Below are positions 38,844 to 52,327 of a stretch of 62,405 nucleotides of DNA, piece after piece. Positions within the stretch are counted from its first letter, which is position 1. The number at the start of each line of letters is the position of its first letter. Made by a program: the position numbers and the translations under genes. Under the pieces are notes generated by a model. That model did no database searches, was not told where the DNA came from, and was given only the letters and a program-made list of their open reading frames with translations. This DNA is from a virus: the IMG/VR virus record IMGVR_UViG_3300049027_000037, positions 1 to 62,405 of that record; one strand, written 5' to 3'.

Positions 38844-40099
38844 TATGAACCGGAAGCGATGAGTGCACGAATACGAGACAGCTGATCGTACACCAGTGCC
38901 GTCTTACGGTTAGTGCTGATGTAATCGTGGTAACGCACCTCGGCAATTGTGCTGAACTGGTTGCGTTGGAAGTCGTCAGCATTAAAGCCAACTTTCAATA
39001 CCATGTCTTGATATACATCGACGTTGTACTGAGTCACGTCGCCTACTAGCGCATAGCCTTCGGCAACCTTGTTACCCTCACGTAGCATGCCCTGCAATCT
39101 TTGCAAGAAAGGAGGCGTTAAGTACAACCGGTCAGTTGCCGATTTCTGCATTTCCAGTAGCGCGCCAGTAACCGGGTTGATACCAGCAAAATTTGCGTTG
39201 AAATTGTTTTTGCCAACTTGGGCGATCATAGCACGCAAAGCATCATACAGGTTAGCATCATCCACCTGACCATTAAGACCAGTAATGTTATAAGCTGTAG
39301 CAGCTGCAATAACAGCGGCGTAGATATCGTCATCCCATTTGCGGGCAACTGTCTCGGTCAATAGGCGCTGAACGATTGTAGTGAACCCCGGTAAGTCCTT
39401 ATCGAACTCCTCAGTGATCACAGACATTGCAGCGGTCTTTTTAGCCTGGCTCATCTCGACTTTAAAGCGAGTGTTCCAAAGTGGTTTTGGTGCGCCTTCC
39501 TGTACCTGAGCGGCGCCACCTTCTACCGATGTTTCATTCACCCATGGAAGTAAGGCTGAATTAGTACGGCCCCTGTTCACATAATTGATAATGAAATTCG
39601 GGTTGTATATGATACCGAAAAAGTTGGTAGCATCAAGGGGTGCGGCAACGGGCAGGTATGGGCTATTTGGCGGCGCAGACATTGGCTGAATAGTGTTGCC
39701 AATTGAGGTGCTGCCGGCCGTTTTTACGATGATGTTTGAAAGCGGAATTTCAAGTACACCGCTACCTTTGCGCTGAATGTCCTTGATCTCCTTTATTGTT
39801 TCAGGATCAGACAAAAGATCTTCCAGCGTTTTAGGTTGTGCGGGGTTGTTATCTTTCAAAGCATTAAGAACAGTACCTTGCTCTCTCAGGATATCTTCTA
39901 CCTGTTGGAGTTTTTCAGATACTTTAGAAAGCTCTTCAGCTTTGAAGGTATTGAAACTGGCAGCTGTCATCATGCCCTTTTGCACATCTTCGATCTTATC
40001 GTTGATGGCTTTTTCTGAAGCGGCGAATTGCTCTTTTATTTTGCTCGCAGCCTCAGTACCGACCTTATCAACAAGGTCTTTGTATTGTTGCTCTGTCAT
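38843..40099 (-). CDS. major capsid protein (HK97-fold type with N-terminal delta/scaffold-like region)
   Basis: 418 aa with a coiled-coil N-terminal ~100 aa, lying after the protease and portal in the canonical order. Confidence 0.7.
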   Translation of the reverse strand: MTEQQYKDLVDKVGTEAASKIKEQFAASEKAINDKIEDVQKGMMTAASFNTFKAEELSKVSEKLQQVEDILREQGTVLNALKDNNPAQPKTLEDLLSDPETIKEIKDIQRKGSGVLEIPLSNIIVKTAGSTSIGNTIQPMSAPPNSPYLPVAAPLDATNFFGIIYNPNFIINYVNRGRTNSALLPWVNETSVEGGAAQVQEGAPKPLWNTRFKVEMSQAKKTAAMSVITEEFDKDLPGFTTIVQRLLTETVARKWDDDIYAAVIAAATAYNITGLNGQVDDANLYDALRAMIAQVGKNNFNANFAGINPVTGALLEMQKSATDRLYLTPPFLQRLQGMLREGNKVAEGYALVGDVTQYNVDVYQDMVLKVGFNADDFQRNQFSTIAEVRYHDYISTNRKTALVYDQLSRIRALIASGS

Positions 40100-41009: not shown

Positions 41010-42455
41010 TCAGCTATCTTCGCTTTCAGAATTTCCTTCGACACCTTCGGTTTCTTCTCCTTCTTCGGTTCCAGATTGCTGTTGTTGGTTTGCATTTTGC
41101 TCACGTTTTATTTCTGAATAATACCGATCGCCATCTGGTCGCGGATCTTCACCGTTCAATTCAAGCCACCGGTTCATTGTAATAAGGTCGTTTTGGTATT
41201 CTATCAGTAAGGCGTCATTGCGAGACTTCCGAGCTTGGGCAGTTTGCAATTGGTCTGCTTGTAACACTGCTACATGTGAGTAATCCTTATCGATTACCAG
41301 GTTATACTTTTCAGTATTAAAGAACTGATTCCATTGCTCGTATATGCTTTCTGATTCGGGTACTATTGCATCCTGGTATAGTAATTTCTTCCCTTCAATT
41401 ACATTGGCATAAGTGGTCCCTTTTGCAGCGGCCATTAACTGGTATGGATAGCTGTAGCTATCGCAGACCGCCATAGTAGAACCTTCTACTTCCTCAAACA
41501 ACATCAGGTCTTTAGTTGCATAGCCCATTTGTTGCCACTTCATTGCGGCTGAGGTAATAATGATGTTCCATTGATGCTGCTTTAGCCCATATCTTCTAAA
41601 CTCACTCTGTATATTTTCCTTTTCGCCTTCAGGCATCGGCAAGGCTCCGAATTGTCCACCGTCGCCCGCATCTTTGGTTAGTATCCCTAGGGCACCACGG
41701 TAATTGATCAGGACATTACGCGATTCGTAGGCACCAATGATATTATTTATGGGTAGTTCGAGTGCGCAAATCCGGCTTTCAGGAATGACAAGAGAACTGA
41801 ATGAAGGTGTTATGTCCTTCATGATGTAAACCTGATCAACATCGAGCTCGGTTCTTATACCTCCGTAGTTGAGGACAATTGTTTTTATGACACCTTTTTG
41901 GTTGGTCTGATAAAACAGCTTATTGGTCTCCTCTATATCCACCATGAAAGGCGGGATATTCCAGAGCGCAGAGGCGTCAATGTTTTCTTTAAACCCTACC
42001 GGCTTAATTGGTAATACTATGGTGTAACCGAATAATTGCTGGTATATGTAACCCTGTGCTTCAAATTGCTTCCAACTTTGTAATGGATTTGGCTTCTTGA
42101 ATAGGGATTGCAGCTTCTTTGCTTCAATTGTCGTTGACTCCTTACCCTTTGCCTTACCCTGAGTATTCAGTACCCAGGTTTTACCATTGATATACGCCTG
42201 AGCCTTTTTGTTGATTATTGCATTAACTGGTGGGCAGCACTCATAAGCAGTGAAAGCGCTTTTGTGCCCGGCATAAGTGAAGTAGAAATAACTACCACCT
42301 GCCAGCTCGGCGAACCACTGTTTACCATCAGGAGCCCCCCGATAACTGCTAGGCGACAGCGGTATAGGATCGTAATTAGATACAGATTTAACAGCACCTT
42401 CAAAGTTGCCTCGCATTAACTCTTTGCCTGCTGTTAATAACTGTGTTTTGTTCAT
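41010..42455 (-). CDS. portal protein
   Basis: ~481 aa with an acidic C-terminus. Start trimmed to MNKTQLL (ATG 42455-42453) because the upstream 9 codons are part of a terminator hairpin and T-run. Confidence 0.7.
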   Translation of the reverse strand: MNKTQLLTAGKELMRGNFEGAVKSVSNYDPIPLSPSSYRGAPDGKQWFAELAGGSYFYFTYAGHKSAFTAYECCPPVNAIINKKAQAYINGKTWVLNTQGKAKGKESTTIEAKKLQSLFKKPNPLQSWKQFEAQGYIYQQLFGYTIVLPIKPVGFKENIDASALWNIPPFMVDIEETNKLFYQTNQKGVIKTIVLNYGGIRTELDVDQVYIMKDITPSFSSLVIPESRICALELPINNIIGAYESRNVLINYRGALGILTKDAGDGGQFGALPMPEGEKENIQSEFRRYGLKQHQWNIIITSAAMKWQQMGYATKDLMLFEEVEGSTMAVCDSYSYPYQLMAAAKGTTYANVIEGKKLLYQDAIVPESESIYEQWNQFFNTEKYNLVIDKDYSHVAVLQADQLQTAQARKSRNDALLIEYQNDLITMNRWLELNGEDPRPDGDRYYSEIKREQNANQQQQSGTEEGEETEGVEGNSESEDS

Positions 42456-42460
42456 AGTGT

Positions 42461-42502
42461 AAAAAGAAAAAGGGCCAGTCACCCATCGCTGAGTGCTGGC
42501 CC
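42461..42502 (-). terminator. rho-independent terminator/attenuator immediately upstream of portal
   Basis: On the minus strand, GGGCCAG (42502-42496) pairs with CTGGCCC (42478-42472) around a 17-nt loop, followed by TTTTTCTTTTT (42471-42461). Confidence 0.65.
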
Positions 42503-42531
42503 TCTTGGGGCGCTCGTATTTTTGTTAAGCG

Positions 42532-42741
42532 TTAACCTCTGATCAATCTTCCAACATAGGCCGTGGCCGTTCCTTCAAATCGGGTCGCTTGTTGTATGTC
42601 GTTGTCTGGTGCCAATTGCGTTGGCAGAATCTCAACAGTTGTATAAGTGCCGCAGGACTTACACTTGAACTCGGCTTTGCCAAATTCAATCTTACCTACC
42701 ACTTTATTACATTTAGGACTACTGCACCTAATCTCCTGCAT
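42532..42741 (-). CDS. Mu Com-like zinc-ribbon protein
   Basis: MQEIRCSSPKCNKVVGKIEFGKAEFKCKSCGTY parallels Mu Com MKSIRCKNCNKLLFKADSFDHIEIRCPRCKRH (two Cys pairs, same spacing class). Confidence 0.6.
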   Translation of the reverse strand: MQEIRCSSPKCNKVVGKIEFGKAEFKCKSCGTYTTVEILPTQLAPDNDIQQATRFEGTATAYVGRLIRG

Positions 42742-42769
42742 AATACGAAATTAGAAATATATTTTCACT

Positions 42770-43387
42770 TTATTCTGAAATATTTGAAATATCGGTTTCT
42801 GACTCCATTTTGCCGAAGCCACGGGGGCCGGCTGAAACCAGTGGAAGGGTAATGAATTTCGTGGGTACCTGGCTGGCGACCTCTTTAATATACCGGTAAT
42901 CCCCCGCCTTCTGACCGTCAAGTTGTCCAATATCTTTGTACTTATGGTGCAGGACCAGACACGGAAGGCCGATCTTGCCCTCGACAATAACCTTGTTTCG
43001 GATGTAATTATCGCGCGGCTTTGGTACACCGTTGCGCAGGAACTGGCATATGATGGCGCCGGGTATCTTTAATTGGTCGGCAAGTTCTTCCAGTACGGTC
43101 GGGCTGGTCAGGATGTCGTCATCGTCGAGGAAGAAGAACCAGCCATCGGTAACCCTCTTTTTCAGTTCATTGCAATACAGGTCGTACCAGTAAACGAAAG
43201 TATTGTCAGAATAGACGAAAACACACTGAAGTCCACGGGGTATGTAATCTAATGCGCTGGCCCGGTCGTGGCCGACCATGATATGAACATTCTTGTACGT
43301 CTGGCTTTGTATCGACGCCAAACACTGAGCAAACTGTGCCGGACGGTTACTGGTTCGGATCAGGATGTTGATTAGTGGGTAGGACAT
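42770..43387 (-). CDS. glycosyltransferase family 2
   Basis: INILIRTSNRPAQFAQCLASIQSQTYKNVHIMVGHD plus the FFLDDDDIL (DxD) motif. Confidence 0.75.
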   Translation of the reverse strand: MSYPLINILIRTSNRPAQFAQCLASIQSQTYKNVHIMVGHDRASALDYIPRGLQCVFVYSDNTFVYWYDLYCNELKKRVTDGWFFFLDDDDILTSPTVLEELADQLKIPGAIICQFLRNGVPKPRDNYIRNKVIVEGKIGLPCLVLHHKYKDIGQLDGQKAGDYRYIKEVASQVPTKFITLPLVSAGPRGFGKMESETDISNISE

Positions 43388-43718
43388 TTATTATGCCTTT
43401 TTGGGTTATAATTAATTCTTTGCGTTCTCCTTCACCTACGATTGCGGGGCCGTCGGACGATACACCGCCAGGAACATAATTAGGTATCGGCTGCGATATT
43501 ATCGTGAGCATGCGCATGCGGGCCATCGCTGGCAGCATGCCCATGGCTAACATTGCCCGCTGACGTTTTAACCGCTTCAACGGCCGCTTGCCTTTCTTTC
43601 TGAACAGGTGCTTAGGTGGGAATGCAATACGGGTATTCTTTGCAATCGCTTCGGCTATGTGAATAATTTCCTCAGCAATCGCCTTTGCTCTTTCGAGTTT
43701 ATGTTGCTCGGGTGTCAT
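43347..43718 (-). CDS. small protein carrying a tape-measure C-terminal-like motif
   Basis: Start is an ATGA overlap with the upstream stop (43718-43715). PGGVSSDGPAIVGEGERKELIITQKGIINVLP aligns with tape-measure PGGLSWVGDGGKKELVITPQGKVMQTP. Confidence 0.5.
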   Translation of the reverse strand: MTPEQHKLERAKAIAEEIIHIAEAIAKNTRIAFPPKHLFRKKGKRPLKRLKRQRAMLAMGMLPAMARMRMLTIISQPIPNYVPGGVSSDGPAIVGEGERKELIITQKGIINVLPTNQHPDPNQ

Positions 43719-44263
43719 GGTGCTGTTACTAAAAGAGTTTTCCAATCCGGGTGCCCAATTTGCTGGTACACCTTGCAGGGATAAGACGCGAGTAATGCCT
43801 TCGTTTCCTCGCTGGGAATCCACCCGACTGACGGTTGTTCCCAATTGTCGATGATGAGTTTCCCGCCGGGTTTGAGGCAATCGAGAGCAGGCTTCACGCA
43901 ATCGTCGCGCCACTGGATGGGTTCGCCGTCGATGATGATGATGTCGAATTGCTCACAACAATACTTAATTGTGTTACTATACGCATGCACACCATCTGCA
44001 AGGGGTAACACAATAAGCGCTTTTGGCCACATAGCATTGACGACTGCCGCATGATAATCAGCATTACTTTCTACTCCATATAGCTTTTTGCACTTCTTAT
44101 TCCACCATAAAGATGAGGCCCCAGCCCCAAACTCGAATACTACCTTATCCTTCAAATCCCACGTTACCAGTTCATCAAGAAAGGATTTTGTGTACCAGGG
44201 GAATACGAGGCCGGTTTCCGGGTCACGGTACTGCCATTCGTTGGAGGTGTTAAGGTCGATCAT
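43715..44263 (-). CDS. class I SAM-dependent methyltransferase
   Basis: Motif I VVFEFGAGASSLW, plus FDIIIIDGEP and LKPGGKLIIDN. Confidence 0.6.
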   Translation of the reverse strand: MIDLNTSNEWQYRDPETGLVFPWYTKSFLDELVTWDLKDKVVFEFGAGASSLWWNKKCKKLYGVESNADYHAAVVNAMWPKALIVLPLADGVHAYSNTIKYCCEQFDIIIIDGEPIQWRDDCVKPALDCLKPGGKLIIDNWEQPSVGWIPSEETKALLASYPCKVYQQIGHPDWKTLLVTAP

Positions 44264-44694
44264 GCTTCCTTTAGTTGTAGCTCTTCGCCGGTCAAGGCGA
44301 AGTAAATATTTTGGAGTTGGTGGACGTGTTTAAACGGCTTCCCTATTTTCTGTAATTTCCCAGCATCTTGATCACATAACCAATACTCACCTCCTTCCGA
44401 ATAAAATAATAGTTCGAAATCTATACTGTAGCACTTAAAGGTTTTTGAATATTTAAACCCGAGCCTTCCCAGCCATTCGGGAGTGATGGGGATGGGATCA
44501 ATAAAACGCGTATCAGTCGAATTATACCCATCACCGATACTCTCCTGGTTTAAAACGTTTGTCCAATGGATTGTTTCTTGGAATATCTGAAGGACGCGGC
44601 CTGCCATCGGTATTTCTTTGCCACTGTCGTCTTCATCGACGCCACAGTTCAAAAGGTTGCCTATACGTATTTCATTTATTTTAATCATTATCAA
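44260..44694 (-). CDS. hypothetical protein
   Basis: 144-aa ORF with 4-nt overlap coupling. Confidence 0.6.
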   Translation of the reverse strand: MIMIKINEIRIGNLLNCGVDEDDSGKEIPMAGRVLQIFQETIHWTNVLNQESIGDGYNSTDTRFIDPIPITPEWLGRLGFKYSKTFKCYSIDFELLFYSEGGEYWLCDQDAGKLQKIGKPFKHVHQLQNIYFALTGEELQLKEA

Positions 44695-46021
44695 AAGTAT
44701 ATTTCCCCAAAGATAACCCCCTGAACCGGTTCAGATCAATTGTATTACTCACCGCTGTTGCCCCTGCCCCGCCGCCGGTCTTATTGTAGTTGAGGCGGTA
44801 TTTGAAATGCGGCCACGCCTTATCCCACATGTAGTTGCCGGCCCCGCCTTCTTCTGTGTCATGCAGCACCAGAATATCGGCAGCATTGGCAAGACGGATG
44901 GCGTCAAGGTGCCGGCGCTCACCTGGTGCGTGGTCGATGAAGATGAGGCCGTGTTGCACTGTCAATGCTTCCTCAATAAGTTTATCCCAGTCCTCAATGT
45001 ACTGAGCGCCGGTTTTGTCACACCATTCCCGGTTATTGTCAAGGGTGTGAAATTTTCTGCCAGTCGCTTCGCAGTCTATTCGTAATAACGGCGTACTACC
45101 TTCGCCACTGCCGAGTTCCAATACGGCCCCATCGTCTGTCAAAGTAAGGCCGAGCAGCAACAAGGGCAGGTGATTATTCCAGTTACCTGTTACTGACTTC
45201 AGAAACTCGTGCTTATCAGTATCAACCACTTTATCAAGTAACTCCTGATAAGTAGGCTGTGTGTATGCTGGTTTACCCTCTAACGCCTCCTTAAATTTAG
45301 TGATGAATGAATGATCTTCTCCCGGCCATAGCCTTTCAGCTACCTGTAATTGCGCTTCCCAATCTCCCCGCTTCATGTGCACGTCGATAACCTCATTTGG
45401 TATCACATCCCAGCAGGCGCGATCCCATCTCCCTGTAGGTAGTCCACGGGGATGGTTATGCAGCCGATCAACGAACGTAATCTTATCCATGCCGTACTCG
45501 CGGGCGCGTTGTGTTAATAACTGCTGATCTACTGACCAGTAATCTTCCCAGCGATCAGAGAAGGCTTTCTCAGGTATTGTAAATTCACCAATTAGTTCGC
45601 GCCATTTATCCGCTCGTGCCTTCACGTAACATATGGGTAGCTCCGACCTACCCGTAAGGTCAAAGCCGTAGGAAATTATCTGCCCCTGACTGACATCGTG
45701 CGTGAAGATGTCGCGGGCGATAACCATGTCGGCGTCGGCGGTCAATATTATATCGTCGGGATTAGGCGTATGAGCGCCCATGAACAACCTTCGTAACTGT
45801 GCTACCGTGGAATCCTTTACGCCTTCTTCTGAATAATAAACTTGGCTCATTGCTTCAGGGCACGCATCCATGATAATCTTCCAAGCATTGTAAGGCACAT
45901 TCACGAATATCACCACCGGCGTATACCCGATTTTCTGCCAGCTATGGCAGACGAGGGGGAGGAGGCTGTAGTAGTCGGGGTTATTGTCGGTGCTGAGTAT
46001 TGCGTATTTATTCATGACCAT
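44681..46021 (-). CDS. bifunctional glycosyltransferase-like / SAM methyltransferase-like protein
   Basis: The N-terminal half has a DxD-like ILTADADMV. The C-terminal half has VLELGSGEGSTPLL, LIFIDHAPGERR and ILVLHDTE (class I methyltransferase fold). Confidence 0.5.
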   Translation of the reverse strand: MVMNKYAILSTDNNPDYYSLLPLVCHSWQKIGYTPVVIFVNVPYNAWKIIMDACPEAMSQVYYSEEGVKDSTVAQLRRLFMGAHTPNPDDIILTADADMVIARDIFTHDVSQGQIISYGFDLTGRSELPICYVKARADKWRELIGEFTIPEKAFSDRWEDYWSVDQQLLTQRAREYGMDKITFVDRLHNHPRGLPTGRWDRACWDVIPNEVIDVHMKRGDWEAQLQVAERLWPGEDHSFITKFKEALEGKPAYTQPTYQELLDKVVDTDKHEFLKSVTGNWNNHLPLLLLGLTLTDDGAVLELGSGEGSTPLLRIDCEATGRKFHTLDNNREWCDKTGAQYIEDWDKLIEEALTVQHGLIFIDHAPGERRHLDAIRLANAADILVLHDTEEGGAGNYMWDKAWPHFKYRLNYNKTGGGAGATAVSNTIDLNRFRGLSLGKYTFDND

Positions 46022-46245
46022 TTGATTTGTGTATCAGTTTCGTTTCTGTGAGTTGACGCGTATATACCATAGCCTAACATTCTCAACTTCTCTGTTACTG
46101 CCGGCTTTACTTCCCCATAGTAAGTAGTCTCATGCCGCCCAGAGGCCGCTTCTTTTTTTATCAGTTTCATGATCTCGTCGAATTGAGAATCGGTACCCTG
46201 GGTTGAGACACGGTCAGCTAATTGTTTGGCTTCTTGTGCGTTCAT
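46012..46245 (-). CDS. hypothetical protein
   Basis: 77-aa ORF. Confidence 0.5.
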   Translation of the reverse strand: MNAQEAKQLADRVSTQGTDSQFDEIMKLIKKEAASGRHETTYYGEVKPAVTEKLRMLGYGIYASTHRNETDTQIKWS

Positions 46246-46254
46246 ATAATAAGT

Positions 46255-46602
46255 TTACCAATAGTGAGTGAACAATAATAGCTTAGGTTCTCCCAGTTCG
46301 TCATCGATAAAACCAAACACCTCATTGAACTTTGACTTAACCTGCTCGGCTGTAACCGGCCATCCTCCATGCGGTAGTTCAAAAAAGTCAAAGCCTCCAC
46401 TGCCGGCGTGGGCAATACGGTAACCAAATACCACATACTCGCCGCGCATCTGGTCATATATAATAGAATAGGTTTCCCCCTTCCAGCCTTCTATTAACCG
46501 CAGACACTTATCATCCTCAAGGATTTCTATACCTTTCGATTTCAGGTAATTGGCTGGCATCTTATACCCATAGATCAAATAGTCGCTCCTATCTACTCCC
46601 AT
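46255..46602 (-). CDS. hypothetical protein
   Basis: 115-aa ORF. Confidence 0.55.
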   Translation of the reverse strand: MGVDRSDYLIYGYKMPANYLKSKGIEILEDDKCLRLIEGWKGETYSIIYDQMRGEYVVFGYRIAHAGSGGFDFFELPHGGWPVTAEQVKSKFNEVFGFIDDELGEPKLLLFTHYW

Positions 46603-46606
46603 AACA

Positions 46607-46867
46607 TTAATTATTTATTTCAGGGAAATAAGTTTCCAGCTTGACCGGTCGCTTATCGTGTACCATGGTTTCATAATCTGGCAACCGTTCGTATAAGTCG
46701 TACCGATTATTCAATACCCATAATCTAAATTCATACACCTGCTGGTTCCTCTTTCGTAATCGTTCATACTTTCTAGGTATGTGATACTGAAGAAATATTG
46801 CAAAGCCGGACAATGCCAGGCTCAATACACACAGCACTATGGTAACCCACCCGATCATAGTTGCCAA
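46607..46867 (-). CDS. small membrane protein (1 TM)
   Basis: N-terminal TM IGWVTIVLCVLSLALSGFAIFL. Confidence 0.5.
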   Translation of the reverse strand: MATMIGWVTIVLCVLSLALSGFAIFLQYHIPRKYERLRKRNQQVYEFRLWVLNNRYDLYERLPDYETMVHDKRPVKLETYFPEINN

Positions 46868-47706
46868 TAAAAAATCTCTTTATATTGTTTCTCTAACCCC
46901 TCCCAGTACTCGTTATCCTTGCCATGCTTTTCAAGGAACTTCACGACCGCATCTGTTTGAAACCCCGAGGCCCCAACATGAAAGCCGTACCCGTTCGTCT
47001 CCTTAAGCTCATCCGGCACGCCGATCTCTTTCAGGTCAATATCATGAATGAAGTTGTGGCAATCGCCCCTAAAGGTCTGAGGATGGCCCAGAACAAAATG
47101 CTCGGTAATGCTGTCGGCAACCTTTGGTAACACGTACCGGTTAAGAAAGTCCTGATCGGCGCCCTTGCGGTTGAAGTCGATACCTTGAGCGGTACACATT
47201 AAGGCGTCAAATGATTGGGCGCTCATGCGAGAGCGGAAGTCCCCTGATTTGAAACCGATCATGCCGCCCATAAGGGTAATGCTGTGGCTTACGCTATCAG
47301 TTATTGCATGCGCCATCTTTGGCCCGCGCTCCCAGTAGGCCACCGCCTGGCGTTCGCGGTAGGACAATAGGCTGTCGGTATCGCGGCAGATGACGCGGTC
47401 GTAAGCCAACTTATCTTTATTTAATAAGAACATTGGGTATAGGCGGTAAAGCATCATCTTGCATAGCTCAGCAGAATGCATGACGTATAGCCTAATCTTT
47501 TGCTGCTTGTCCAGCTCGTACAAATAATTTACATATGGACTTTCGGTTACCGATTCATCTATCATGACTGCAACGGTCCAACCAGGATAGAGTAATTGGG
47601 CTACACGTACGTTCAGGTGCAACCCGCGCAGGTAACTGCGGAAGTCGTAACAATTTTCGTGTTGCTGGTTATAACCGAAAAGGGAATATGAGATGGCATT
47701 ACCCAT
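46855..47706 (-). CDS. putative glycosyltransferase (GT-A-like)
   Basis: ISYSLFGYN...LLYPGWTVAVMID...ICRDTDSL (DxD-like). This is a weak, motif-only call. Confidence 0.35.
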   Translation of the reverse strand: MGNAISYSLFGYNQQHENCYDFRSYLRGLHLNVRVAQLLYPGWTVAVMIDESVTESPYVNYLYELDKQQKIRLYVMHSAELCKMMLYRLYPMFLLNKDKLAYDRVICRDTDSLLSYRERQAVAYWERGPKMAHAITDSVSHSITLMGGMIGFKSGDFRSRMSAQSFDALMCTAQGIDFNRKGADQDFLNRYVLPKVADSITEHFVLGHPQTFRGDCHNFIHDIDLKEIGVPDELKETNGYGFHVGASGFQTDAVVKFLEKHGKDNEYWEGLEKQYKEIFYWQL

Positions 47707-47992
47707 GGGTAAAAGGATTTTCAGTGAACAATGAAACAGGGGGTTGAATGGTCGTGCATATACTCAGGTAAATAACCCCGGTGCGCTGTATTTCTTCTAA
47801 GTCCTCTTTGGACAACTTCCAGCACGAAATAATAGTTGGTACCGTATTGCCTTTATCATCAATAGGCGCTCGGCCTTCCCATACTGCCAGATCGCTACAT
47901 TGCTCGTCTGTCCAGCCCTCAGGCTTTTGGTATACAAAGTTTCTTGCAGGGAAGTCAACTGGTAGCATATTAGTAACGTTTATCTGAAACAA
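47699..47992 (-). CDS. hypothetical protein
   Basis: 97-aa ORF. Confidence 0.5.
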   Translation of the reverse strand: MFQINVTNMLPVDFPARNFVYQKPEGWTDEQCSDLAVWEGRAPIDDKGNTVPTIISCWKLSKEDLEEIQRTGVIYLSICTTIQPPVSLFTENPFTHG

Positions 47993-48536
47993 AAAGGTAA
48001 TTATAAATTACTTCATCAATAACATGCTCCGTCTTTAAGCACCCCTTACTCATCAAGTCCATTGCCCACTTACTATCCTCGCTGAACCTCCATGAAGGGA
48101 ACTCTGCTTGCCTTGCGTGCTCTGTCTTTAAACAATTGATATGCATCACCGGCCTGTAAAACACACCATCGTCACCGGTGAATATATTATCGTATTTGAT
48201 TGAGTGAACGAACTTGGTTGGATTCTGGCCGTCTTTGGTATAGATACCTGTAAGTGAACAGCAGTCCACTCCCTTGCTTATCCCCTCCATCAGATGTGTG
48301 ATATAGTTCGGGCCTGGCATATCATCATCGTCGAAGAAGGCCATGTACTCGGTATCAACTTCGGCCATCATTCGGTTGCGTTTGGTTCCGATGTCGATGG
48401 TGGTATCGCTGTTGGTGCTTATAATTACAGGCGCTTTCGATTCGTCGATTTGCTGAGTTAACATCATAGTTAATATCTCAAAGAAGCCAAAGCGGGCGGG
48501 TAGTGTCGGAATAAGTATCGATAGCTTTGGTGTCAT
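47970..48536 (-). CDS. glycosyltransferase family 2
   Basis: LSILIPTLPARFGFFEILTMM plus the MAFFDDDDM (DxD) motif. Confidence 0.7.
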   Translation of the reverse strand: MTPKLSILIPTLPARFGFFEILTMMLTQQIDESKAPVIISTNSDTTIDIGTKRNRMMAEVDTEYMAFFDDDDMPGPNYITHLMEGISKGVDCCSLTGIYTKDGQNPTKFVHSIKYDNIFTGDDGVFYRPVMHINCLKTEHARQAEFPSWRFSEDSKWAMDLMSKGCLKTEHVIDEVIYNYLFVSDKRY

Positions 48537-49087
48537 GGTAAGTTAGATACATTTCTTTTATTTGGAACAATTGGCATACCTGTTACGTGATTCCAAGTTT
48601 TGCCTGTCTTTATTGATAATACCGTACTGTGATACACGCCATACATTCTACCCAACTCCCGGCAACCCAATCCTGATTTAAATATTTCTAGAACAACCTC
48701 ATTTGACAAATGAGACTTATTACATTTCTCACCTAGGGCTTTATTTTTCAAGCCCATCCTTTGCGCATGTCTTTCATTGTGACTTTTGTTACACCATTCA
48801 AGATTTGAAACATGGTTGTTTGTCTTATCACCATCAATGTGATTGATCACAGGCAGGTTATCCGGATTAGGTATAAACATTTGTGCAACTAACCTATGCA
48901 AACGATAATTTGCACCGTTTATGTACTTAGTCGGGTAGCCGTTGCCATTAACCGAAAGGCTCAATATTCTTGGGAAAGCTGATACAGATTTCCCGCCCCG
49001 GTTCCAGTATGATCTTAATCGACCGTGATTACTTACTTCATACATGCCGTTTAATTCTGGTATGTTTTTCCATGCCTCTATGATCAT
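48533..49087 (-). CDS. HNH homing endonuclease (NUMOD4 + HNH_3 type)
   Basis: WKNIPELNGMYEVSNHGRLRS (NUMOD4-like) and INHIDGDKTNNHVSNLEWCNKSHNERH (HNH). Confidence 0.8.
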   Translation of the reverse strand: MIIEAWKNIPELNGMYEVSNHGRLRSYWNRGGKSVSAFPRILSLSVNGNGYPTKYINGANYRLHRLVAQMFIPNPDNLPVINHIDGDKTNNHVSNLEWCNKSHNERHAQRMGLKNKALGEKCNKSHLSNEVVLEIFKSGLGCRELGRMYGVYHSTVLSIKTGKTWNHVTGMPIVPNKRNVSNLP

Positions 49088-49740
49088 AGCTTGAAGTTTA
49101 ATGATTGACGCTTTAAGAATACTTCCTTATCCTTATTGTATGTGTCGTTCCTCCAATAAAGCTCGTCTTTCTTAGCTTTCGCATTATTTGAATAATGCAA
49201 ATGCTCTATTTGAACTTCCGGTAAGAATATATAACAACCCCTTAATTTAGATACCTCCGTTTGTTCGTCATCGCAGAACATCGAGTAGTAGCAATCACGA
49301 TATATAAACCCATCCCTTTCATAATACTTTCTACCCAATATTGCCACCGTACATACCCGTTCCTTCGCGTAATCGTCGGGACAATGGATCAGCGCGTCAA
49401 GGTTAACGGGCATAGCCCTACGAATGATATTATCAAAACCATAAGTCCTGAATCTCATGTCGTCACTTACGCACACCATTATGTCCCAATGCGACAATTC
49501 TTCCAAATCCCTGTTTATCGCATGGATCTTACTCTTACTCATACCCCACTTCACAATGACCATTGGATAGTTGTCCGCGATCTTCTGCTTAATCAGCGGG
49601 TCATTCATCGCCATATCGTCATCATCCAGCTTGGCGACGATAAAGAAGTCATTACTCGCTGAATTAACGATGATATTGTCGAGTGTCTCGAAGAACCGGG
49701 CTGGCCTCGATCGCGAAGCAAAGCTGTAGCAGATGGTCAT
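49084..49740 (-). CDS. glycosyltransferase-like protein (GT2-like)
   Basis: ICYSFASRSRPARFFETLDNII...IVAKLDDDD...VCVSDDMRF. Confidence 0.5.
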   Translation of the reverse strand: MTICYSFASRSRPARFFETLDNIIVNSASNDFFIVAKLDDDDMAMNDPLIKQKIADNYPMVIVKWGMSKSKIHAINRDLEELSHWDIMVCVSDDMRFRTYGFDNIIRRAMPVNLDALIHCPDDYAKERVCTVAILGRKYYERDGFIYRDCYYSMFCDDEQTEVSKLRGCYIFLPEVQIEHLHYSNNAKAKKDELYWRNDTYNKDKEVFLKRQSLNFKL

Positions 49741-49952
49741 GGTTTCTTATTTATTAACGCATTCAATTGACTAGCAAAGTGCCCAAGGATAAGGCCACCA
49801 CATGCAACCTGCCAGTATGTTTGTATAAAGGGCATGAGCAGGCATGCGAACCCTGCACTATACAGCACCCACCTAACTATCCGCATAGGTATAAATACCG
49901 GCAATGATGGCTCCTTAATTTCCTCTTTTGGCTTATCTTCAATTTGCTTCAT
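49737..49952 (-). CDS. small membrane protein (2 TM)
   Basis: 71-aa ORF with two hydrophobic helices. Confidence 0.5.
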   Translation of the reverse strand: MKQIEDKPKEEIKEPSLPVFIPMRIVRWVLYSAGFACLLMPFIQTYWQVACGGLILGHFASQLNALINKKP

Positions 49953-50646
49953 ACTTACTTGGTTTAGGGTACAACTCGTTCAACACATCCCACATGCCAT
50001 GCTCAAAACACCTGTCACCTATACTGAACCACTTACGTCCTGCGATTATCTTATTGATCATATCCTTATTGTAAGGCATCCTGATCTTAATATCCTCAGC
50101 ATATTCCCCAGTAATTCCATTCATCACACAGTACAATGTCTTAAGGCAGTAGCCGTGCGCTTTTGACCAATCGGCTAGGGCCGCTGATCGCATGAACAAT
50201 TGTTTATTAAACACTATAGGGCAATGGCAGTCGTAGTTATTGAATGAATCGGTAAAGGATAGCAGACTCTTGGTATTCTGCTTTGTCTCCCCATACTGCC
50301 CGAACCCCTCATTCATCGGCCCCATGTGGTAGTAAGGGAAGGCGCCGGCCTCATAGTCGGCAAGAAGGAAATGGTCATCATGCACCATCAGAAAATCATC
50401 ACTCACTCGGCTATCCTTACACGCCTCCAGCATCTTCAGCATTATATTGCGATCACGGAACCGGTTACGCGGGTCTTCTTCGAATGGGACGTGAATAACG
50501 TTTGTTACCCACTCCGGACAATAGCCGATGATGAACACATTACCCACGCCGTGAAGGTGGCGCTCAATGCTGCGCAAGCAATAACGCAGTTCTTTGTTCT
50601 TTTGCGTTGAGCGGTTGTTGAGAGGGATGATGATGTCTGTGCTCAT
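49939..50646 (-). CDS. Stealth-CR2-like sugar-phosphate/glycosyl transferase, putative
   Basis: IIIPLNNRS..NKELRYCLRSIERHLHGVGNVFIIGYCPEW resembles the ELRYSLRS..APW..I.IV Stealth CR2 block. HDDHFLL is also present. Confidence 0.4.
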   Translation of the reverse strand: MSTDIIIPLNNRSTQKNKELRYCLRSIERHLHGVGNVFIIGYCPEWVTNVIHVPFEEDPRNRFRDRNIMLKMLEACKDSRVSDDFLMVHDDHFLLADYEAGAFPYYHMGPMNEGFGQYGETKQNTKSLLSFTDSFNNYDCHCPIVFNKQLFMRSAALADWSKAHGYCLKTLYCVMNGITGEYAEDIKIRMPYNKDMINKIIAGRKWFSIGDRCFEHGMWDVLNELYPKPSKYEAN

Positions 50647-50762
50647 CTCGCCTTATACTGCTTTTTCTTTGCCTTATATACTGCCTTGGTTTCCCTGGTA
50701 GACTTGCCGACCGTTTCTTTTTCAGCCTCTTTGCGCAGGCGTTTAGCTACTTTGTTTCGCAT
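50643..50762 (-). CDS. 39-aa highly basic peptide
   Basis: Hand-translated: MRNKVAKRLRKEAEKETVGKSTRETKAVYKAKKKQYKAR. Its stop overlaps the next ATG as ATGA (50646-50643). Confidence 0.4.
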   Translation of the reverse strand: MRNKVAKRLRKEAEKETVGKSTRETKAVYKAKKKQYKAR

Positions 50763-50773
50763 AAAATAAATAA

Positions 50774-50805
50774 GGGCGCATCAAGTGGTTAGACTTAACA
50801 CGCCC
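50774..50805 (-). terminator. terminator-like hairpin after terL
   Basis: On the minus strand, GGGCG (50805-50801) pairs with CGCCC (50778-50774) around a 22-nt loop, followed by TTATTTATTTTAT. Confidence 0.35.
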
Positions 50806-50905
50806 ATTTCGTTAACCTTGGCCAACGTACTCAGCTAACCCTTGCGTACGTCGGTAGCGCTAAGTTACATTATTTATTGAACTTTCAGGATTTTATGAAA
50901 TTTAA

Positions 50906-52327
50906 TTATCTCCCCTTGAAGAACCTACTATACACCGCATATCTGCAAGCATCCAATGCGTGGTTAAACTCATCTACCGGCTCGGTGGTTATTATCTTAC
51001 CATAACATACCCATTGGTAGTTGTTCAGCTCCATCTTCATATTGACTGACCCTTTGGTGTAATGGCATGTATACTCTTTTAGCTTATCAATACCGGCTCT
51101 TATGCTACCCTCCCCCTTAATAGCAGGGAACGCTGCAACACTCAATAGTCTTAGCTCAGCAATTTTAGCGGGGATATGGTCGCAATAAACTATCTGACCG
51201 TCTCGGTACCCGTTATCAATCATTGCTTGCTTGATGTCCTTAACGGGCATACTTGATGCGTAACAGCACTCTTTGAAGTATACATTATCGTTCTCAACTG
51301 AGCATTTAACCAAGGCGTTGATACCGGTGGTCTTGCCGAAGTCTAGCCCCCAGGTTATGCGCTCGACATCTGTCGGCCACTCGGGTATTTCAATCCAGTC
51401 GGAGTAAATTAATATGTCGGTGTTCGGCTTCGGGTCCTGCTGGTAAAGGCTGTTATAACTAACCTGGCTTAATTTCTTTTGGCTGAGTACCTTTTCCAGG
51501 CTGTGTTTTTCAGGCCACAATACTTCACCCGGTAAGCGGGTATCGTAGTCGTTTATATCCTCGGTCCTGATAGCGGGGAATTTAATCACTTCCCATTCGC
51601 CGGGCTCCTCAACCAATAACCGCCCGCAAAGGTCGTTCTCGTCCCACCGGGTGTTCATAATCAGCTGTTGGCTGCCATTATGCAACCTGGTCCTAAACAC
51701 ATCTACATACCAGTTCCATGCGCTTTCGCTAATGGTTGGAGACTTAGCCTCGTCCCGGTCTTTGTATAGGTCATCAATGATGCCAATATCAACCGGCTCA
51801 GAAGTTAACGGGCCGCCCCGCCCCACCGTCTTTAGTGATCCTTTCTTTTGGACTATCTCGAACTTATGTTCAGTGCGTGAGTAGTTGTCGTAGTTGGTAC
51901 CGAATATCTTACTATTGTTCAGCTTGGTATCCGGGAATACTCGATCATATGCCTCATTGTCAATATTACGCTGAATAGCCCGGTTAAACCCGCTGGCTGT
52001 ACTGTCGCCATAGCTGGCAATAGCGATCTTTAAGTTAGCATTGCGCCCCAGCAGGTAAGGAGGGAATAAGCGGGTAGCCAATTCAGTTTTGCCGTGTTGC
52101 GGGGGCAACAGGATCATCAACTTCTTAACCTGCCCTTCTGCAAACTGGTTTAGTTTCATGCAGATGTACGCATGAAACCATTGCATTTCGTAATCTGGCT
52201 TAATGTATTTGACGAACGGGCTGAAGTCGGTGCGGGATTGACGCATTAATAGCTCACGCGCGGCATGTATCGCCTCGATTAACGCCTTGCGCTCAGCTGT
52301 TAGTGGATAACTTTGATGTGAGCTCAC
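50906..52327 (-). CDS. terL: terminase large subunit
   Basis: Walker A LLPPQHGKTE, Walker B-like GIIDDLYKD, and C-terminal nuclease motifs including HALDACRYAV. Confidence 0.85.
   Translation of the reverse strand: MSSHQSYPLTAERKALIEAIHAARELLMRQSRTDFSPFVKYIKPDYEMQWFHAYICMKLNQFAEGQVKKLMILLPPQHGKTELATRLFPPYLLGRNANLKIAIASYGDSTASGFNRAIQRNIDNEAYDRVFPDTKLNNSKIFGTNYDNYSRTEHKFEIVQKKGSLKTVGRGGPLTSEPVDIGIIDDLYKDRDEAKSPTISESAWNWYVDVFRTRLHNGSQQLIMNTRWDENDLCGRLLVEEPGEWEVIKFPAIRTEDINDYDTRLPGEVLWPEKHSLEKVLSQKKLSQVSYNSLYQQDPKPNTDILIYSDWIEIPEWPTDVERITWGLDFGKTTGINALVKCSVENDNVYFKECCYASSMPVKDIKQAMIDNGYRDGQIVYCDHIPAKIAELRLLSVAAFPAIKGEGSIRAGIDKLKEYTCHYTKGSVNMKMELNNYQWVCYGKIITTEPVDEFNHALDACRYAVYSRFFKGR

Follow-up and report, generated by a model that had tools for sequence, protein, structure and literature searches.

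A glycosyltransferase-rich gene island between terL and portal of a Bacteroidota phage, probably a virion glycosylation system

A 62,405-nucleotide stretch of viral DNA (IMG/VR record IMGVR_UViG_3300049027_000037), here called the window, carries between its terL and portal genes a block of glycosyltransferases (GTs) and methyltransferases, which raises the question of what these enzymes decorate. The host phylum is Bacteroidota, and the phage is temperate, with an integrase gene in the window (Table 1). As argued below, the island probably serves to glycosylate the phage's own virions and is probably co-expressed with the genes for head and tail. To our knowledge, sugar coating of phage virion proteins has been demonstrated so far only in a few mycobacteriophages.

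The gene block and its borders

The interval between terL and portal, both identified by Pfam, contains 17 minus-strand open reading frames (ORFs; 42532-50762) that overlap at 12 of 17 junctions, with 28 nt as the biggest internal gap and gaps of 143 nt and 76 nt at the block borders, in agreement with a previous sequence-only reading of 17 co-oriented, mostly overlapping genes. The GC content of the block (0.39-0.50) is similar to that of the remainder of the window. Regarding the portal start, the ATG at 42455 is more likely than the GTG at 42482. The sequence-only reading took terL and portal to be normally adjacent, but in island-free relatives they are 0.7-2.7 kb apart with other small genes between them, and the slot is therefore a variable one. 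The glyco-island is kept across a metagenomic phage clade with a set of enzymes that differs among members; FkbM methyltransferases, GT11 fucosyltransferase-like enzymes and sugar-modifying enzymes are found in the islands of relatives. Such variation points to glycans that differ from one related phage to another.

Hairpins with T-rich tails do occur at both borders, as had been noted (50774-50805 and 42461-42506), but the idea that they insulate a cassette lacks support, because the portal-side hairpin and Com-like module exist without the island. This hairpin is kept in L004, L013 and L024 and in two relatives without the island, L015 and L048, with compensatory changes in its stem. The 13-bp terL-side hairpin, for its part, is the last portion of a larger conserved element of 137 nt, which ends directly before the ATG of p39 and persists even where terL is swapped for a version 33-35% identical. 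Compensatory changes affect 9 of the 29 predicted pairs of this element, and a comparison with Rfam gave no match. Terminator-like sites in the region (16, against 13.3 expected from shuffling) are not in excess.

A Com-like zinc ribbon had been counted within the island. The 69-aa window protein itself has no Pfam match, and weak matches to Zn_ribbon_Com (PF10122) occur in homologues encoded just before portal in L050 and in the island-free L048; the resemblance stands, but the gene, together with the portal-side hairpin, goes with the portal module rather than with the glyco-island. From sequence alone, the arrangement is like that of Mu Com/mom, namely a small CxxC...CxxC protein encoded just upstream of a strong hairpin that abuts the next start codon, although the downstream gene here is portal and not a DNA-modification enzyme.

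Table 1. Features of the window discussed in the text, in descending order of position
Feature	Position	Strand	Evidence or remark
terL	50906-52327		Pfam Terminase_6N 1.5e-8
Conserved non-coding element after terL, 137 nt	50763-50899	-	Invariant box TTGAAAGTTCAG..TAATGTAACTT; two to three hairpins; T-run after the terminal hairpin
p39, 39-aa basic peptide	50643-50762	-	ORF 61-72% identical in L005, L013, L029, L030; no family match
Minimal Stealth-family transferase, 235 aa	49939-50646	-	Stealth_CR2, phrog_7999, family profile
71-aa protein, two hydrophobic segments	49737-49952	-	Adjoins Stealth-like gene
GT218, probable glycosyltransferase, 218 aa	49084-49740	-	phrog_14945 "glycosyltransferase" 5.6e-15; kept in relatives
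HNH homing endonuclease	48533-49087	-	HNH_3 1.2e-9, NUMOD4 7.1e-8
GT188, GT2 glycosyltransferase, 188 aa	47970-48536	-	Pfam GT2 26.4 bits (cut-off 23.3); phrog_14775 1.6e-35
89-aa protein	47699-47968	-	phrog_25433 1.3e-9
p283, probable GT-A-fold transferase (low confidence), 283 aa	46855-47706	-	Structure matches
83-aa protein, variable part of island	46607-46858	-	One strong N-terminal hydrophobic helix
115-aa protein, variable part	46255-46602	-	Homologues in L005 and L034 only
77-aa protein, variable part	46012-46245	-	phrog_3012 3.2e-6
p446, GT + methyltransferase-like fusion, 446 aa	44681-46021	-	AlphaFold pLDDT 90.2, Foldseek
142-aa protein	44260-44688	-	phrog_10066 4.7e-22; presence varies among relatives
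p182, probable class-I SAM methyltransferase (weak), 182 aa	43715-44263	-	Methyltransf_24 E 0.013; FGAGASS motif
123-aa protein	43347-43718	-	True start is the ATG at 43718, inside a longer ORF
GT205, GT2 glycosyltransferase, 205 aa	42770-43387	-	Pfam GT2 27.1 bits (cut-off 23.3)
Com-like zinc-ribbon protein, CxxC...CxxC, 69 aa	42532-42741	-	Zn_ribbon_Com in homologues
Strong hairpin + T-run	42461-42506	-	Ends 6 nt before portal ATG
portal	41010-42455		Phage_portal 1.9e-14
Major capsid protein	38843-40099	-	Pfam Phage_capsid; ends ..IASGS (codons 38846-38860)
Putative major tail (tube) protein, 317 aa	36797-37750	-	Ends ..ESASS
Integrase	13662-14966

The sugar-handling enzymes

At least five GTs are encoded in the block: GT205 and GT188, the two enzymes already called clear GT2 members and both above the Pfam gathering score; GT218, earlier termed GT2-like and upheld by PHROGs, though without a Pfam match; the GT8/GT24-like GT-A domain of the fusion protein p446; and a Stealth homologue. 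The calls for a sixth GT-A enzyme (p283) and for a stand-alone methyltransferase (p182) are weaker, and several of the methyltransferase and GT calls score under curated thresholds. GT205 is kept in every close relative as well as in L049. GT188 is homologous (hhalign probability 99.4) to the GT domain at the N-terminus of mycobacteriophage Che8 gp108 (tblastn 1e-7) and to phiAsp2 Pas33 (tblastn 3e-15).

The proposed GT-like/methyltransferase fusion is borne out by the AlphaFold model of p446, in which residues 1-250 are predicted to form a GT8/GT24-like GT-A glycosyltransferase with a DADM motif, and residues from about 285 to 446 a class-I methyltransferase-like Rossmann domain with the motif LELGSGEGST. 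The N-terminal domain matches in the PDB the GT8 structure 3tzt (Foldseek, 4.5e-8) and also UGGT, LARGE1, GlyE, LgtC and glycogenin, and the best structural matches of p446 in BFVD are giant-virus GT+methyltransferase fusions, among them a Catovirus protein (3.9e-10), with phiAsp2 Pas34 (8e-8) spanning both domains. In most relatives, the two domains are two separate genes.

Two other calls were retained in part. The top Foldseek matches of p283 are nearly all GT-A proteins (UGGT, glycogenin, TarP/TarS, YeGT), and its invariant CRDTDS motif resembles DxD, but the E values are about 4e-3 and the model is of low confidence (pLDDT 63.8, confident over the first ~110 residues); none of its 493 metagenomic homologues has a Pfam domain. 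Likewise, p182 does match Methyltransf_24, but weakly (0.0022 for the homologue in L005), and its hhalign comparison with the C-terminal domain of p446 (probability 64) covers motif I only.

Regarding the smaller genes, the free-standing HNH homing endonuclease was correctly recognized earlier; it is found in some relatives only, these carry other HNH or GIY-YIG genes elsewhere, and it is a mobile passenger outside the pathway. The 89-aa protein may also fall outside it, since L048, which lacks the island, encodes a homologue after portal. The 39-aa basic peptide corresponds to an ORF kept in relatives, and the 83-aa protein, with a Kyte-Doolittle score of 2.6 across 19 residues, shows no conservation in the relatives compared. 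The two tiny membrane proteins suggested previously are plausible as two small hydrophobic proteins, and as GT2 enzymes often use lipid-linked acceptors, membrane-associated chemistry is possible.

The Stealth-family protein, a predicted hexose-1-phosphate transferase, is encoded by the sole gene common to all glyco-islands examined. As a single sequence it matches Pfam Stealth_CR2 at 2.6e-5 and 24.8 bits, under the gathering score of 39.4, and phrog_7999 at 4.9e-30, and a 17-sequence family profile matches in the PDB the catalytic domain of GNPTAB (8.2e-10) and CpsY (9.8e-6), which sustains the original Stealth-CR2-like call. Homologues are present in L049, L050, L052, L044 and L014, and in the actinophages Fionnbharth (gp6), Gaia (gp170), TurkishDelight (gp22) and OneUp; the gene for the 71-aa protein lies beside it throughout the window clade and in L014. 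Known members of the family are the GNPTAB GlcNAc-1-phosphotransferase, CpsY of M. tuberculosis and meningococcal capsule polymerases. The phage protein has the ELRYxLRS (CR2) motif of these hexose-1-phosphate transferases, an acidic DD motif preceding hydrophobic residues, an H-x-P motif and a C-terminal PSxYE-like motif. It is, however, far shorter, with one domain, its gene sits in phage structural modules, and it is proposed to act on the C-terminus of a protein or on a glycan attached there, whereas known Stealth enzymes use a capsule chain or the mannose of an N-glycan.

Capsid and tail-tube C-termini

The SGS end of the major capsid protein is invariant in 13 of 13 clade sequences read, with variable residues before it, and is proposed as the glycan attachment site. 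A second proposed substrate is the C-terminus of the 317-aa putative tail-tube protein, assigned from position only, upstream of chaperone-like genes and the tape measure; its ESASS end is the same in each of the 10 clade sequences read, that of the window among them. Proteins ending in Ser number 7 of 95 in the window.

Island and capsid end were compared across 8 lineages, with capsid homologues 41-46% identical to the window capsid. Gly/Ser capsid ends accompany an adjacent glyco-island in five of five lineages (window clade, L052, L050, L049 and L044), and the three island-free lineages (L046, L047 and L048) have capsids ending in ..LINAA, ..LINA or ..LINTP (Fisher p = 0.018). The tail-tube Ser end is restricted to the window clade and L050, being absent in L049, L052 and L044. 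Gly/Ser ends are also found in the four actinophage lineages with a Stealth-like gene, where capsid and tail tube end, respectively, in ..GSGS and ..VGSV (Fionnbharth), ..SSGS and ..VVGS (Gaia), ..NAGS and ..GFGS (OneUp), and ..GSTS and ..VAS (TurkishDelight). In TurkishDelight the Stealth-like gene directly follows that of the major tail protein, and capsid and tail genes have a GT gene between them. The TM4 capsid is 83% identical to that of Fionnbharth; the TM4 proteins end in ..APAA and ..VISV, and there is no Stealth homologue within the first 14 kb of TM4.

Virion glycosylation, its rivals and known systems

If the island glycosylates the virion, its soluble enzymes would use host nucleotide sugars to make a short, methylated and probably phosphodiester-containing glycan, joined to Ser-containing C-terminal tails, ..SGS in the major capsid protein and ..SASS in the putative tail tube. 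As the conserved core, the Stealth-like sugar-1-phosphate transferase is the candidate for initiation; chain extension would fall to GT188, GT205, GT218, the N-terminal domain of p446 and probably p283, and methylation to p182 and the C-terminal domain of p446. Enzyme folds and families, their conservation and the co-variation of islands with Gly/Ser C-termini are what the comparisons show; which acceptor is used, in what order the enzymes act and what the glycan consists of are inferred. The sequence-only reading had also favored a methylated glycan on virion proteins, and this gains support from the homology of GT188 to Che8 gp108, the invariant Ser-containing C-termini, the co-occurrence of Gly/Ser capsid ends with glyco-islands across lineages, and the Gly/Ser ends of actinophages with a Stealth-like gene.

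The same enzymes could alter a surface polysaccharide or a lipid-linked glycan precursor of the host, in lysogeny or late infection, and thus block superinfection or keep progeny off debris, as with serotype-converting phages. Lysogenic conversion is conceivable for a temperate phage with an integrase, a tail protein with a GDSL/SGNH domain and two polysaccharide lyases make a polysaccharide receptor probable, capsules and exopolysaccharides are often made by GT2 and Stealth enzymes (CpsY is among the PDB matches), and the island holds two small hydrophobic proteins. We nevertheless regard host-envelope modification as unlikely, since the genes lie within the packaging/head operon with overlapping stops and starts, away from the integrase/immunity region, and Pfam and PHROGs gave no GtrA-, GtrB- or GT-C-like gene, flippase, polymerase or exporter, in line with the Wzx/Wzy/ABC exporter reported missing before; in addition, it leaves unexplained both the co-variation of island and capsid C-terminus and the Gly/Ser ends of actinophages with a Stealth-like gene. 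The glycan might otherwise go to tail fibres, other minor virion proteins, host proteins or a small molecule, the C-terminal motifs being a lineage trait independent of the island. The virion acceptor is one that we infer, GT8/GT24-like folds cover enzymes for many acceptor types, and a Ser-rich 132-aa protein inside the island of one relative (L036:2679-3074) is a possible substrate; yet such a target needs a coincidence in at least nine independent lineages of two phyla, including the matched pair Fionnbharth/TM4, and is judged decidedly unlikely.

Highly improbable, in our view, is DNA hypermodification, in which the GTs would put sugars on modified genome bases to evade restriction, as in T4 or metaviromic 5hmC-glycan clusters. 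The window does encode an N6/N4 DNA methyltransferase (57671-58525), and phage metaviromes contain clusters of several GTs that glycosylate 5hmC and in some cases lie close to terminase or structural genes; the same study considers a DNA target less likely for GT contigs that lack precursor-forming partner enzymes (bioRxiv 10.1101/2023.12.21.572611), which counts against this rival. The island is like such clusters (T4; 5mYOX/ThyS-linked) in grouping several GT-A enzymes, sometimes near packaging genes; unlike them, the window has methyltransferase-like and Stealth enzymes and no base-hydroxymethylating or oxidising partner. As already suspected for base-hydroxymethylase and DpdA-type genes, precomputed Pfam and PHROGs matches in the window include no thymidylate-synthase-like hydroxymethylase, 5mYOX/TET, C5-methyltransferase, DpdA or other precursor-forming enzyme. 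Moreover, we know of no DNA pathway with sugar-methylating enzymes or a sugar-1-phosphate transferase, which also counts against it, and the association with the capsid C-terminus is left unexplained.

Virion glycosylation, the preferred reading, has counterparts in viruses of eukaryotes and of bacteria. Capsid glycosylation in chloroviruses and giant viruses is independent of the host secretory machinery (e.g., the multi-domain GT/methyltransferase enzymes of PBCV-1), and the island resembles it in its soluble viral GTs and sugar methyltransferases, with the virus's own major capsid protein as proposed target. Those are eukaryotic viruses, with atypical N-linked glycans on internal Asn, whereas a C-terminal Ser is proposed here, and their enzymes have no sequence-level homology with those of the island.

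Regarding mycobacteriophages, Che8 virions are reported to be glycosylated, with gp110 essential for capsid glycosylation (PMC12363180). PMC12619734, citing Freeman 2023, places the glycans of Mycobacterium phages on the C-terminal ends of the capsid and tail-tube subunits, and the O-glycosylation of these virions is credited in PMC12363180 and PMC12619734 to Freeman et al. 2023 (Cell Host Microbe 31:1216). Three annotated GTs, gp108-110, lie at the end of the Che8 genome; the capsid ends in ..TGS and the tail tube in ..DGS, and none of the other Che8 structural proteins ends in this Gly/Ser manner. Corndog (capsid ..VGS, tail tube ..GDS) has a methyltransferase and three GTs (its glycosylation genes being gp35-38) between its head-assembly genes and capsid gene, and phiAsp2 has Pas33-35 after its tail genes. 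The present system differs from Che8 and Corndog in host phylum (Bacteroidota vs Actinomycetota), in size (up to six GTs and two methyltransferases vs three GTs with or without one methyltransferase), in its position between terL and portal, and in its conserved core, a Stealth-type sugar-1-phosphate transferase absent from both; no homologue of Che8 gp110 or Corndog gp38 was detected, and glycosylation is here predicted from the genes, unlike that of Che8 virions. Shared with Che8 and Corndog are cytoplasmic phage GTs and a methyltransferase in or beside the structural genes and Gly/Ser-rich C-termini of capsid and putative tail tube; in addition, GT188 is a sequence homologue of the gp108 GT domain of Che8, and the fold of p446 matches the GT/O-methyltransferase Pas34 of phiAsp2.

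Gene content and borders of the island

The terL and portal genes are separated by 17 minus-strand genes, with 12 of 17 junctions overlapping and all internal gaps at or below 28 nt, and the sequence-only reading was therefore correct in describing a gene block at this place. At least five of these genes are of the glycosyltransferase (GT) type, which places GTs in or beside the structural module of the phage. The coordinates of the island genes, here named by their protein length in aa, and of the other features discussed are collected in the table below. The remaining island genes encode an HNH homing endonuclease, a 39-aa basic peptide, a Com-like zinc ribbon, two small hydrophobic proteins (71 and 83 aa), and five proteins of unknown function.

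Features of the window and of related loci (positions refer to the window unless a locus is named)
Feature	Position	Description
GDSL lipase gene	12905-13588	separate gene, opposite strand, adjoins integrase
Integrase	13662-14966
Acb2/Tad1-like protein	20348-20662
Tail protein, 1259 aa	22271-27579 region	GDSL/SGNH domain; beside two polysaccharide lyases
Portal	41010-42455
Portal-side hairpin	42461-42506	minus strand; ends 6 nt before portal ATG
Com-like gene and portal hairpin	42461-42741; L048:7133-7395; L050:5381-6036
GT205	42770-43387	Pfam GT2 (PF00535), 27.1 bits, cut-off 23.3
p182	43715-44263	weak methyltransferase-like matches
p446	44681-46021	pLDDT 90.2; N-domain GT8/GT24-like, 4.5e-8
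p283	46855-47706	poor model, pLDDT 63.8; nearest structures nearly all GT-A, E ~4e-3
GT188	47970-48536	Pfam GT2 (PF00535), 26.4 bits, cut-off 23.3
Homing endonucleases	48533-49087; L006:6385-7122; L030:5367-6053; L002:8444-9091; L008:316-792; L036:7419-7916
GT218	49084-49740	PHROG glycosyltransferase family match, no Pfam match
Stealth-like protein	49939-50646	weak Pfam match alone; 17-member profile finds GNPTAB (8.2e-10) and CpsY
137-nt element	50763-50899	minus strand, non-coding
terL	50906-52327
Sister-lineage terL-portal slot	L049:1507-6779
Ser-rich protein, 132 aa	L036:2679-3074	inside island
Fionnbharth Stealth-like gene	L021:1273-1959
Fionnbharth gp95	L059:41469-42044	annotated DNA methyltransferase
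Gaia gp171	L022:5693-6274	annotated DNA methyltransferase

Checked by HMM searches and structure prediction, the motif-based GT and methyltransferase calls are firm for GT205, GT188, the GT domain of p446, and the Stealth-like protein as a homologue, moderate for GT218 and the methyltransferase domain of p446, and weak for p283 and p182. The N-terminal domain of p446, modelled with pLDDT >90, resembles 3tzt (Foldseek, 4.5e-8) as well as UGGT, LARGE1, GlyE, LgtC, and glycogenin, and it combines a retaining-type GT-A fold with a DxD motif, DADM, in which D96 and D98 are nearly invariant. The C-terminal domain has the secondary-structure order of class I methyltransferases and a GSGEGST motif, with no Pfam match, and the full-length protein finds structural matches in a Catovirus “glycosyltransferase and methyltransferase domain protein” and in Pas34 of the Actinoplanes phage phiAsp2. 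The matches of p182 and of its homologue to Methyltransf_24 (E 0.013 and 0.0022, respectively) both fall below the cut-off; an FkbM methyltransferase in the islands of relatives scores 24.0 bits against a cut-off of 22.7. Searches of the PDB with p283 and p446, by single sequences and by profiles, returned only noise, and structure prediction was therefore needed for these two; the GT-A families of the island did not find one another by hhalign. The sequence-only reading had seen no Wzx/Wzy/ABC exporter and no nucleotide-sugar synthesis genes, and indeed no genes for nucleotide-sugar synthesis, flippase, polymerase, or exporter were found in the island.

Both border hairpins are present, but the idea that they insulate the block as terminators was rejected. 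The portal-side hairpin is kept with compensatory stem changes, including in the relatives L048 and L015, and since in L048 it follows the Com-like gene with no island, it belongs to the Com-like/portal module, where it may control portal translation or read-through. The pair formed by the Com-like gene and this hairpin occurs in relatives whether or not they carry the island, and its layout is similar to that of Mu com/mom translational control, except that here the pair precedes the portal gene. As for the Com-like call itself, the cysteine pattern (CxxC...CxxC) stands, whereas no PF10122 match is found for the 69-aa window protein at E up to 5, and the precomputed matches of the homologues at the same position in L048 and L050 are weak. 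At the other border, the terL-side hairpin is the last part of a conserved 137-nt element that carries an invariant TTGAAAGTTCAG..TAATGTAACTT box and covarying hairpins and closes with a terminator-like hairpin, and relatives in which a version only 33-35% identical has taken the place of terL still keep this element. One may speculate that it is a late promoter, or a leader RNA with a terminator or antitermination target. Rfam gave no match for either border element, and scans for sigma-70 promoters and terminators gave counts not above shuffled expectation.

The phage and the island in its relatives

The window, a phage contig from a metagenome (JGI copies of 62,405 and 62,375 bp), is complete or nearly so, and the phage is temperate and of the siphovirus type, encoding a BT4734-like primase, an N6/N4 DNA methyltransferase, and a tape measure protein of 1147 aa in addition to the integrase. 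The large GDSL/SGNH tail protein, together with the two polysaccharide lyases that adjoin it, implies a polysaccharide receptor. The separate GDSL lipase gene next to the integrase is a possible moron, and the Acb2/Tad1-like protein is a candidate anti-CBASS/Thoeris sponge. TerL is ~40% identical to that of Porphyromonas, Flavobacterium, and Bacteroides phages, and the portal is ~33% identical to Polaribacter phage portals. A scan of GTDB genomes with p283 gave one convincing relative contig (70% identity), a Bacteroidota MAG, along with a weak match of 44 residues in a Roseovarius MAG. It gave no clear case of an integrated prophage, so that the host is placed at the phylum level only, in the Bacteroidota. 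A megablast search with 13 kb of sequence found no near-identical genome among 50,697 phage records, and the clade of the window is known from metagenomes only.

Relatives retrieved from IMG/VR and Logan, with portals 56-76% identical to that of the window, share one island gene order: the Stealth-like gene, p71, GT218, GT188, p283, a variable segment, the N and C domains of p446, a second variable segment, GT205, the Com-like gene, and the portal. The two p446 domains are fused (446 aa) in the window and L007 and are encoded by two adjacent genes in different frames in most relatives (window compared with L002-L013). The variable segments carry the FkbM methyltransferase, additional proteins resembling GTs and SDRs, and various endonucleases of the HNH or GIY-YIG type, and for p283 alone 493 homologues are found in metagenomes. 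The positions that free-standing homing endonucleases (HNH/NUMOD4, GIY-YIG, AP2-like HNH) take within the island change from one relative to another.

Eight relatives (L002, L006, L009, L013, L029, L030, L034, L036) have a terL only 32-35% identical to that of the window in its C-terminal part, whereas identity remains at 60-80% for the island, portal, and head genes further downstream, with the mosaic breakpoint at the terL/island border. Since the gene order is kept, the contents vary, and the island is retained despite the terL swap, we regard it as an old, conserved but modular feature of a clade that is itself widespread; its behaviour is that of a locus for glycan biosynthesis subject to diversifying selection. 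A recent foreign insertion was rejected, as the GC content is that of the genome and the island proteins are 45-86% identical across terL-swapped relatives.

Islands further afield are built differently: those of L014 and L050 combine a Stealth-like gene with a methyltransferase and a GT11/GT7C-like protein, and that of the sister lineage L049 holds a Stealth-like gene and a GT205 homologue. The same terL-portal slot of L049 encodes a methyltransferase, a hexapeptide acetyltransferase, a PIG-L deacetylase, a GFO/IDH/MocA oxidoreductase, and an AsnB-like amidotransferase, a set that suggests that an unusual sugar, amino or amidated, is made for the glycan. In L036, a low-complexity protein with SSSYDSGSSS runs could be an extra glycosylation substrate.

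The Stealth-like enzyme and the capsid and tail-tube ends

Enzymes of the Stealth family transfer sugar-1-phosphate, i.e., they are hexose-1-phosphate transferases. The window protein is, judging from its sequence, a genuine but minimal homologue of this family, predicted to be a sugar-1-phosphate transferase. Its Stealth CR2 region (ELRYSLRS ... NDD) scores 24.8 bits (33.3 for the L036 homologue) against a Pfam cut-off of 39.4, and the family profile aligns over 146 positions to GNPTAB. L20, S26, and D90-D91 are invariant in the family, E19 and R25 nearly so, and an H-x-P motif and a C-terminal PS(K/Q)(Y/F)E motif also align to GNPTAB, in a protein much shorter than canonical members. The Stealth-like gene is the only gene common to all the glyco-islands compared. 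The hydrophobic p71 adjoins it throughout the clade of the window and in L014, which leaves room for a membrane-associated step.

Mycobacterium phage glycans are located at the C-termini of capsid and tail-tube subunits, according to PMC12619734, which cites Freeman et al. 2023. These two proteins end in ..NKTGS and ..YSDGS in Che8, whose other structural proteins end otherwise, and in ..PLVGS and ..IKGDS in Corndog. In every sequence read from the clade of the window, the capsid ends in ..I(D/A)SGS and the putative tail tube in ..ESASS, with varying residues before, so that candidate acceptors are present in both proteins at the sequence level; Ser is the last residue of 7 of the 95 predicted window proteins. 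A set of 120 capsid homologues of a sister lineage forms two groups, one with Gly/Ser-rich ends (SGS, AGS, GSGSF, GGSISGF, GGSGS) and the other with hydrophobic ends (GLINAA, LINA, LINTP, ITV), and 77 of them have GS within the last six residues. Across eight lineages, the Gly/Ser end goes with the presence of a glyco-island (Fisher's exact p = 0.018); L051, whose contig begins at the portal, and L053, whose portal lies apart from the head genes, have an uninformative context and were left out.

C-terminal ends and glycosylation genes in Bacteroidota lineages and actinophages
Lineage or phage	Capsid end	Tail-tube end	Glyco-island upstream of portal, or Stealth-like gene
Window clade	..SGS		island
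L052	..GGSGS		island
L050	..GSGSF		island
L049	..GGSVSGF		island
L044	..GGSISGF		island; Stealth-like fragment at contig edge
L046	..LINAA		no island
L047	..LINA		no island
L048	..LINTP		no island
Fionnbharth (L021, L054)	..DAGSGS	..LVGSV	Stealth-like gene
Gaia (L022, L055)	..PSSGS	..VVGS	Stealth-like gene
OneUp (L057)	..VNAGS	..GFGS	Stealth-like gene
TurkishDelight (L056)	..PGSTS	..CVAS	Stealth-like gene
TM4 (L058)	..VVAPAA	..DGVISV	no Stealth homologue in first 14 kb

Stealth-like homologues were found in 43 phage records, all of them actinophages, and are mostly annotated as “hypothetical protein”. TM4 and Fionnbharth belong to the same cluster and their capsids are 83% identical, yet TM4 has no Stealth homologue at the position where Fionnbharth carries one. 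In TurkishDelight, the gene lies directly downstream of the major tail protein gene, before the head-to-tail adaptor, and the capsid and tail genes are separated by a gene for a 678-aa GT. No gene of Fionnbharth is annotated as a glycosyltransferase, its Stealth-like gene being listed as “hypothetical”, which suggests, as far as sequences can tell, that the Stealth-like enzyme alone may modify the terminal Ser. Fionnbharth gp95 and Gaia gp171 are 37% identical, and both are encoded beside the Stealth-like gene (in Fionnbharth, across the ends of the genome); both resemble small class I methyltransferases and may act on a glycan rather than on DNA, with no detectable relationship to the methyltransferase-like proteins of the window. 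From these data, the virions of the Fionnbharth group, of Gaia, and of others are predicted to carry a modification that has gone unreported.

Virion glycosylation, alternatives, and known systems

In isolated phages, GT188 is matched best by phiAsp2 Pas33 and by the GT domain at the N-terminus of Che8 gp108 (hhalign probability 99.4). The three glycosyltransferases annotated at the end of that genome are gp108-110; Che8 virions are reported to be glycosylated, and gp110 and Corndog gp38 to be the essential capsid glycosyltransferases, in PMC12363180. Searches with blastp, phmmer, and hhalign linked none of the island proteins to Che8 gp109 or gp110 or to Corndog gp36-38, and comparison by hhalign of the island families with Che8, Corndog, Fionnbharth, and Gaia proteins gave two links only, GT188 to gp108 and the Stealth-like protein to gp6/gp170.

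The GT188-gp108 homology, the C-terminal sequences, and the co-variation of island and capsid end support a glycan on the virion, as the sequence-only reading had proposed, and we consider it probable that virion proteins are glycosylated by the island enzymes. Directly supported here are the folds and families of the enzymes, their conservation, and the C-terminus co-variation in two phyla. During late expression, a host UDP-sugar would be the donor from which the Stealth-like enzyme moves sugar-1-phosphate, either onto the terminal Ser of the capsid and tail-tube subunits or onto a first sugar placed there; the GT2 and GT8-like enzymes would lengthen the chain, and the methyltransferase-like domains would cap or decorate it. 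A bolder and decidedly tentative version is that the minimal Stealth-type enzyme itself phosphoglycosylates this Ser, giving Ser-O-phospho-sugar, with x-G-S-COOH as a portable cross-phylum acceptor signal.

The same enzymes might instead act on DNA, on the host envelope, or on other acceptors. DNA glycosylation is unlikely by the criteria set out in bioRxiv 10.1101/2023.12.21.572611, because a precursor-forming enzyme is absent from the window: the 62 kb contain no ThyS-like hydroxymethylase, 5mYOX/TET, or similar base-precursor enzyme by precomputed Pfam matches on all called genes and PHROGs on the unannotated genes upstream of terS, which bears out the earlier remark that no base-hydroxymethylase gene is present. 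Modification of the host envelope would suit a temperate lifestyle and the usual roles of GT2 and Stealth enzymes, but it agrees neither with the operon position and the capsid association nor with the lack of Gtr, flippase, or exporter genes, and we hold it to be improbable. Pfam, NCBIfam, and PHROG searches gave no matches to a GtrA flippase, a GtrB bactoprenol glucosyltransferase, or a polytopic GT-C, and the island, ~28 kb from the integrase and with hydrophobic proteins of only 71 and 83 aa, is not organized as a Gtr-type module. That the glycan is destined for an acceptor other than the capsid and tail-tube termini seems improbable.

If the island does glycosylate the virion, this process extends to temperate phages of the Bacteroidota, a phylum of major gut and environmental bacteria, with a gene set that is large and diversifying, like an O-antigen locus, and two sequence predictors become available for any phage genome, namely a Stealth-like gene and Gly/Ser C-termini of both capsid and tail tube. 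If Ser phosphoglycosylation also holds, virion glycosylation would be common, not rare, in the large Bacteroidota siphophage group, given its proportion of GS ends, and would extend to clusters of mycobacteriophages, for example the Fionnbharth group and Gaia. The cross-phylum link between Stealth-like gene and GS end is a testable prediction that reaches culturable mycobacteriophages. Glycan coats could alter how such phages are recognized by antibodies, mucus, host receptors, and defence systems, with a bearing on phage therapy and on the reading of virome data, and the compact enzymes with their short acceptor tag could serve the engineering of glycosylated protein nanoparticles.

To our knowledge, glycosylation of phage particles has been demonstrated only for a few mycobacteriophages, and in 2023 Freeman reportedly saw little support for it among phages at large. 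We found no report of a Stealth-type core enzyme in virion glycosylation in the literature searched. As in Corndog (gp35-38) and phiAsp2 (Pas33-35), the GT genes of the window lie in or beside the structural module. Phage-encoded virion glycosylation is in itself of a known kind, that of the mycobacteriophages, from which the locus described here differs in the phylum of its host, in its genomic position, in a much larger and more variable enzyme set, and in having a Stealth-type enzyme at its core.
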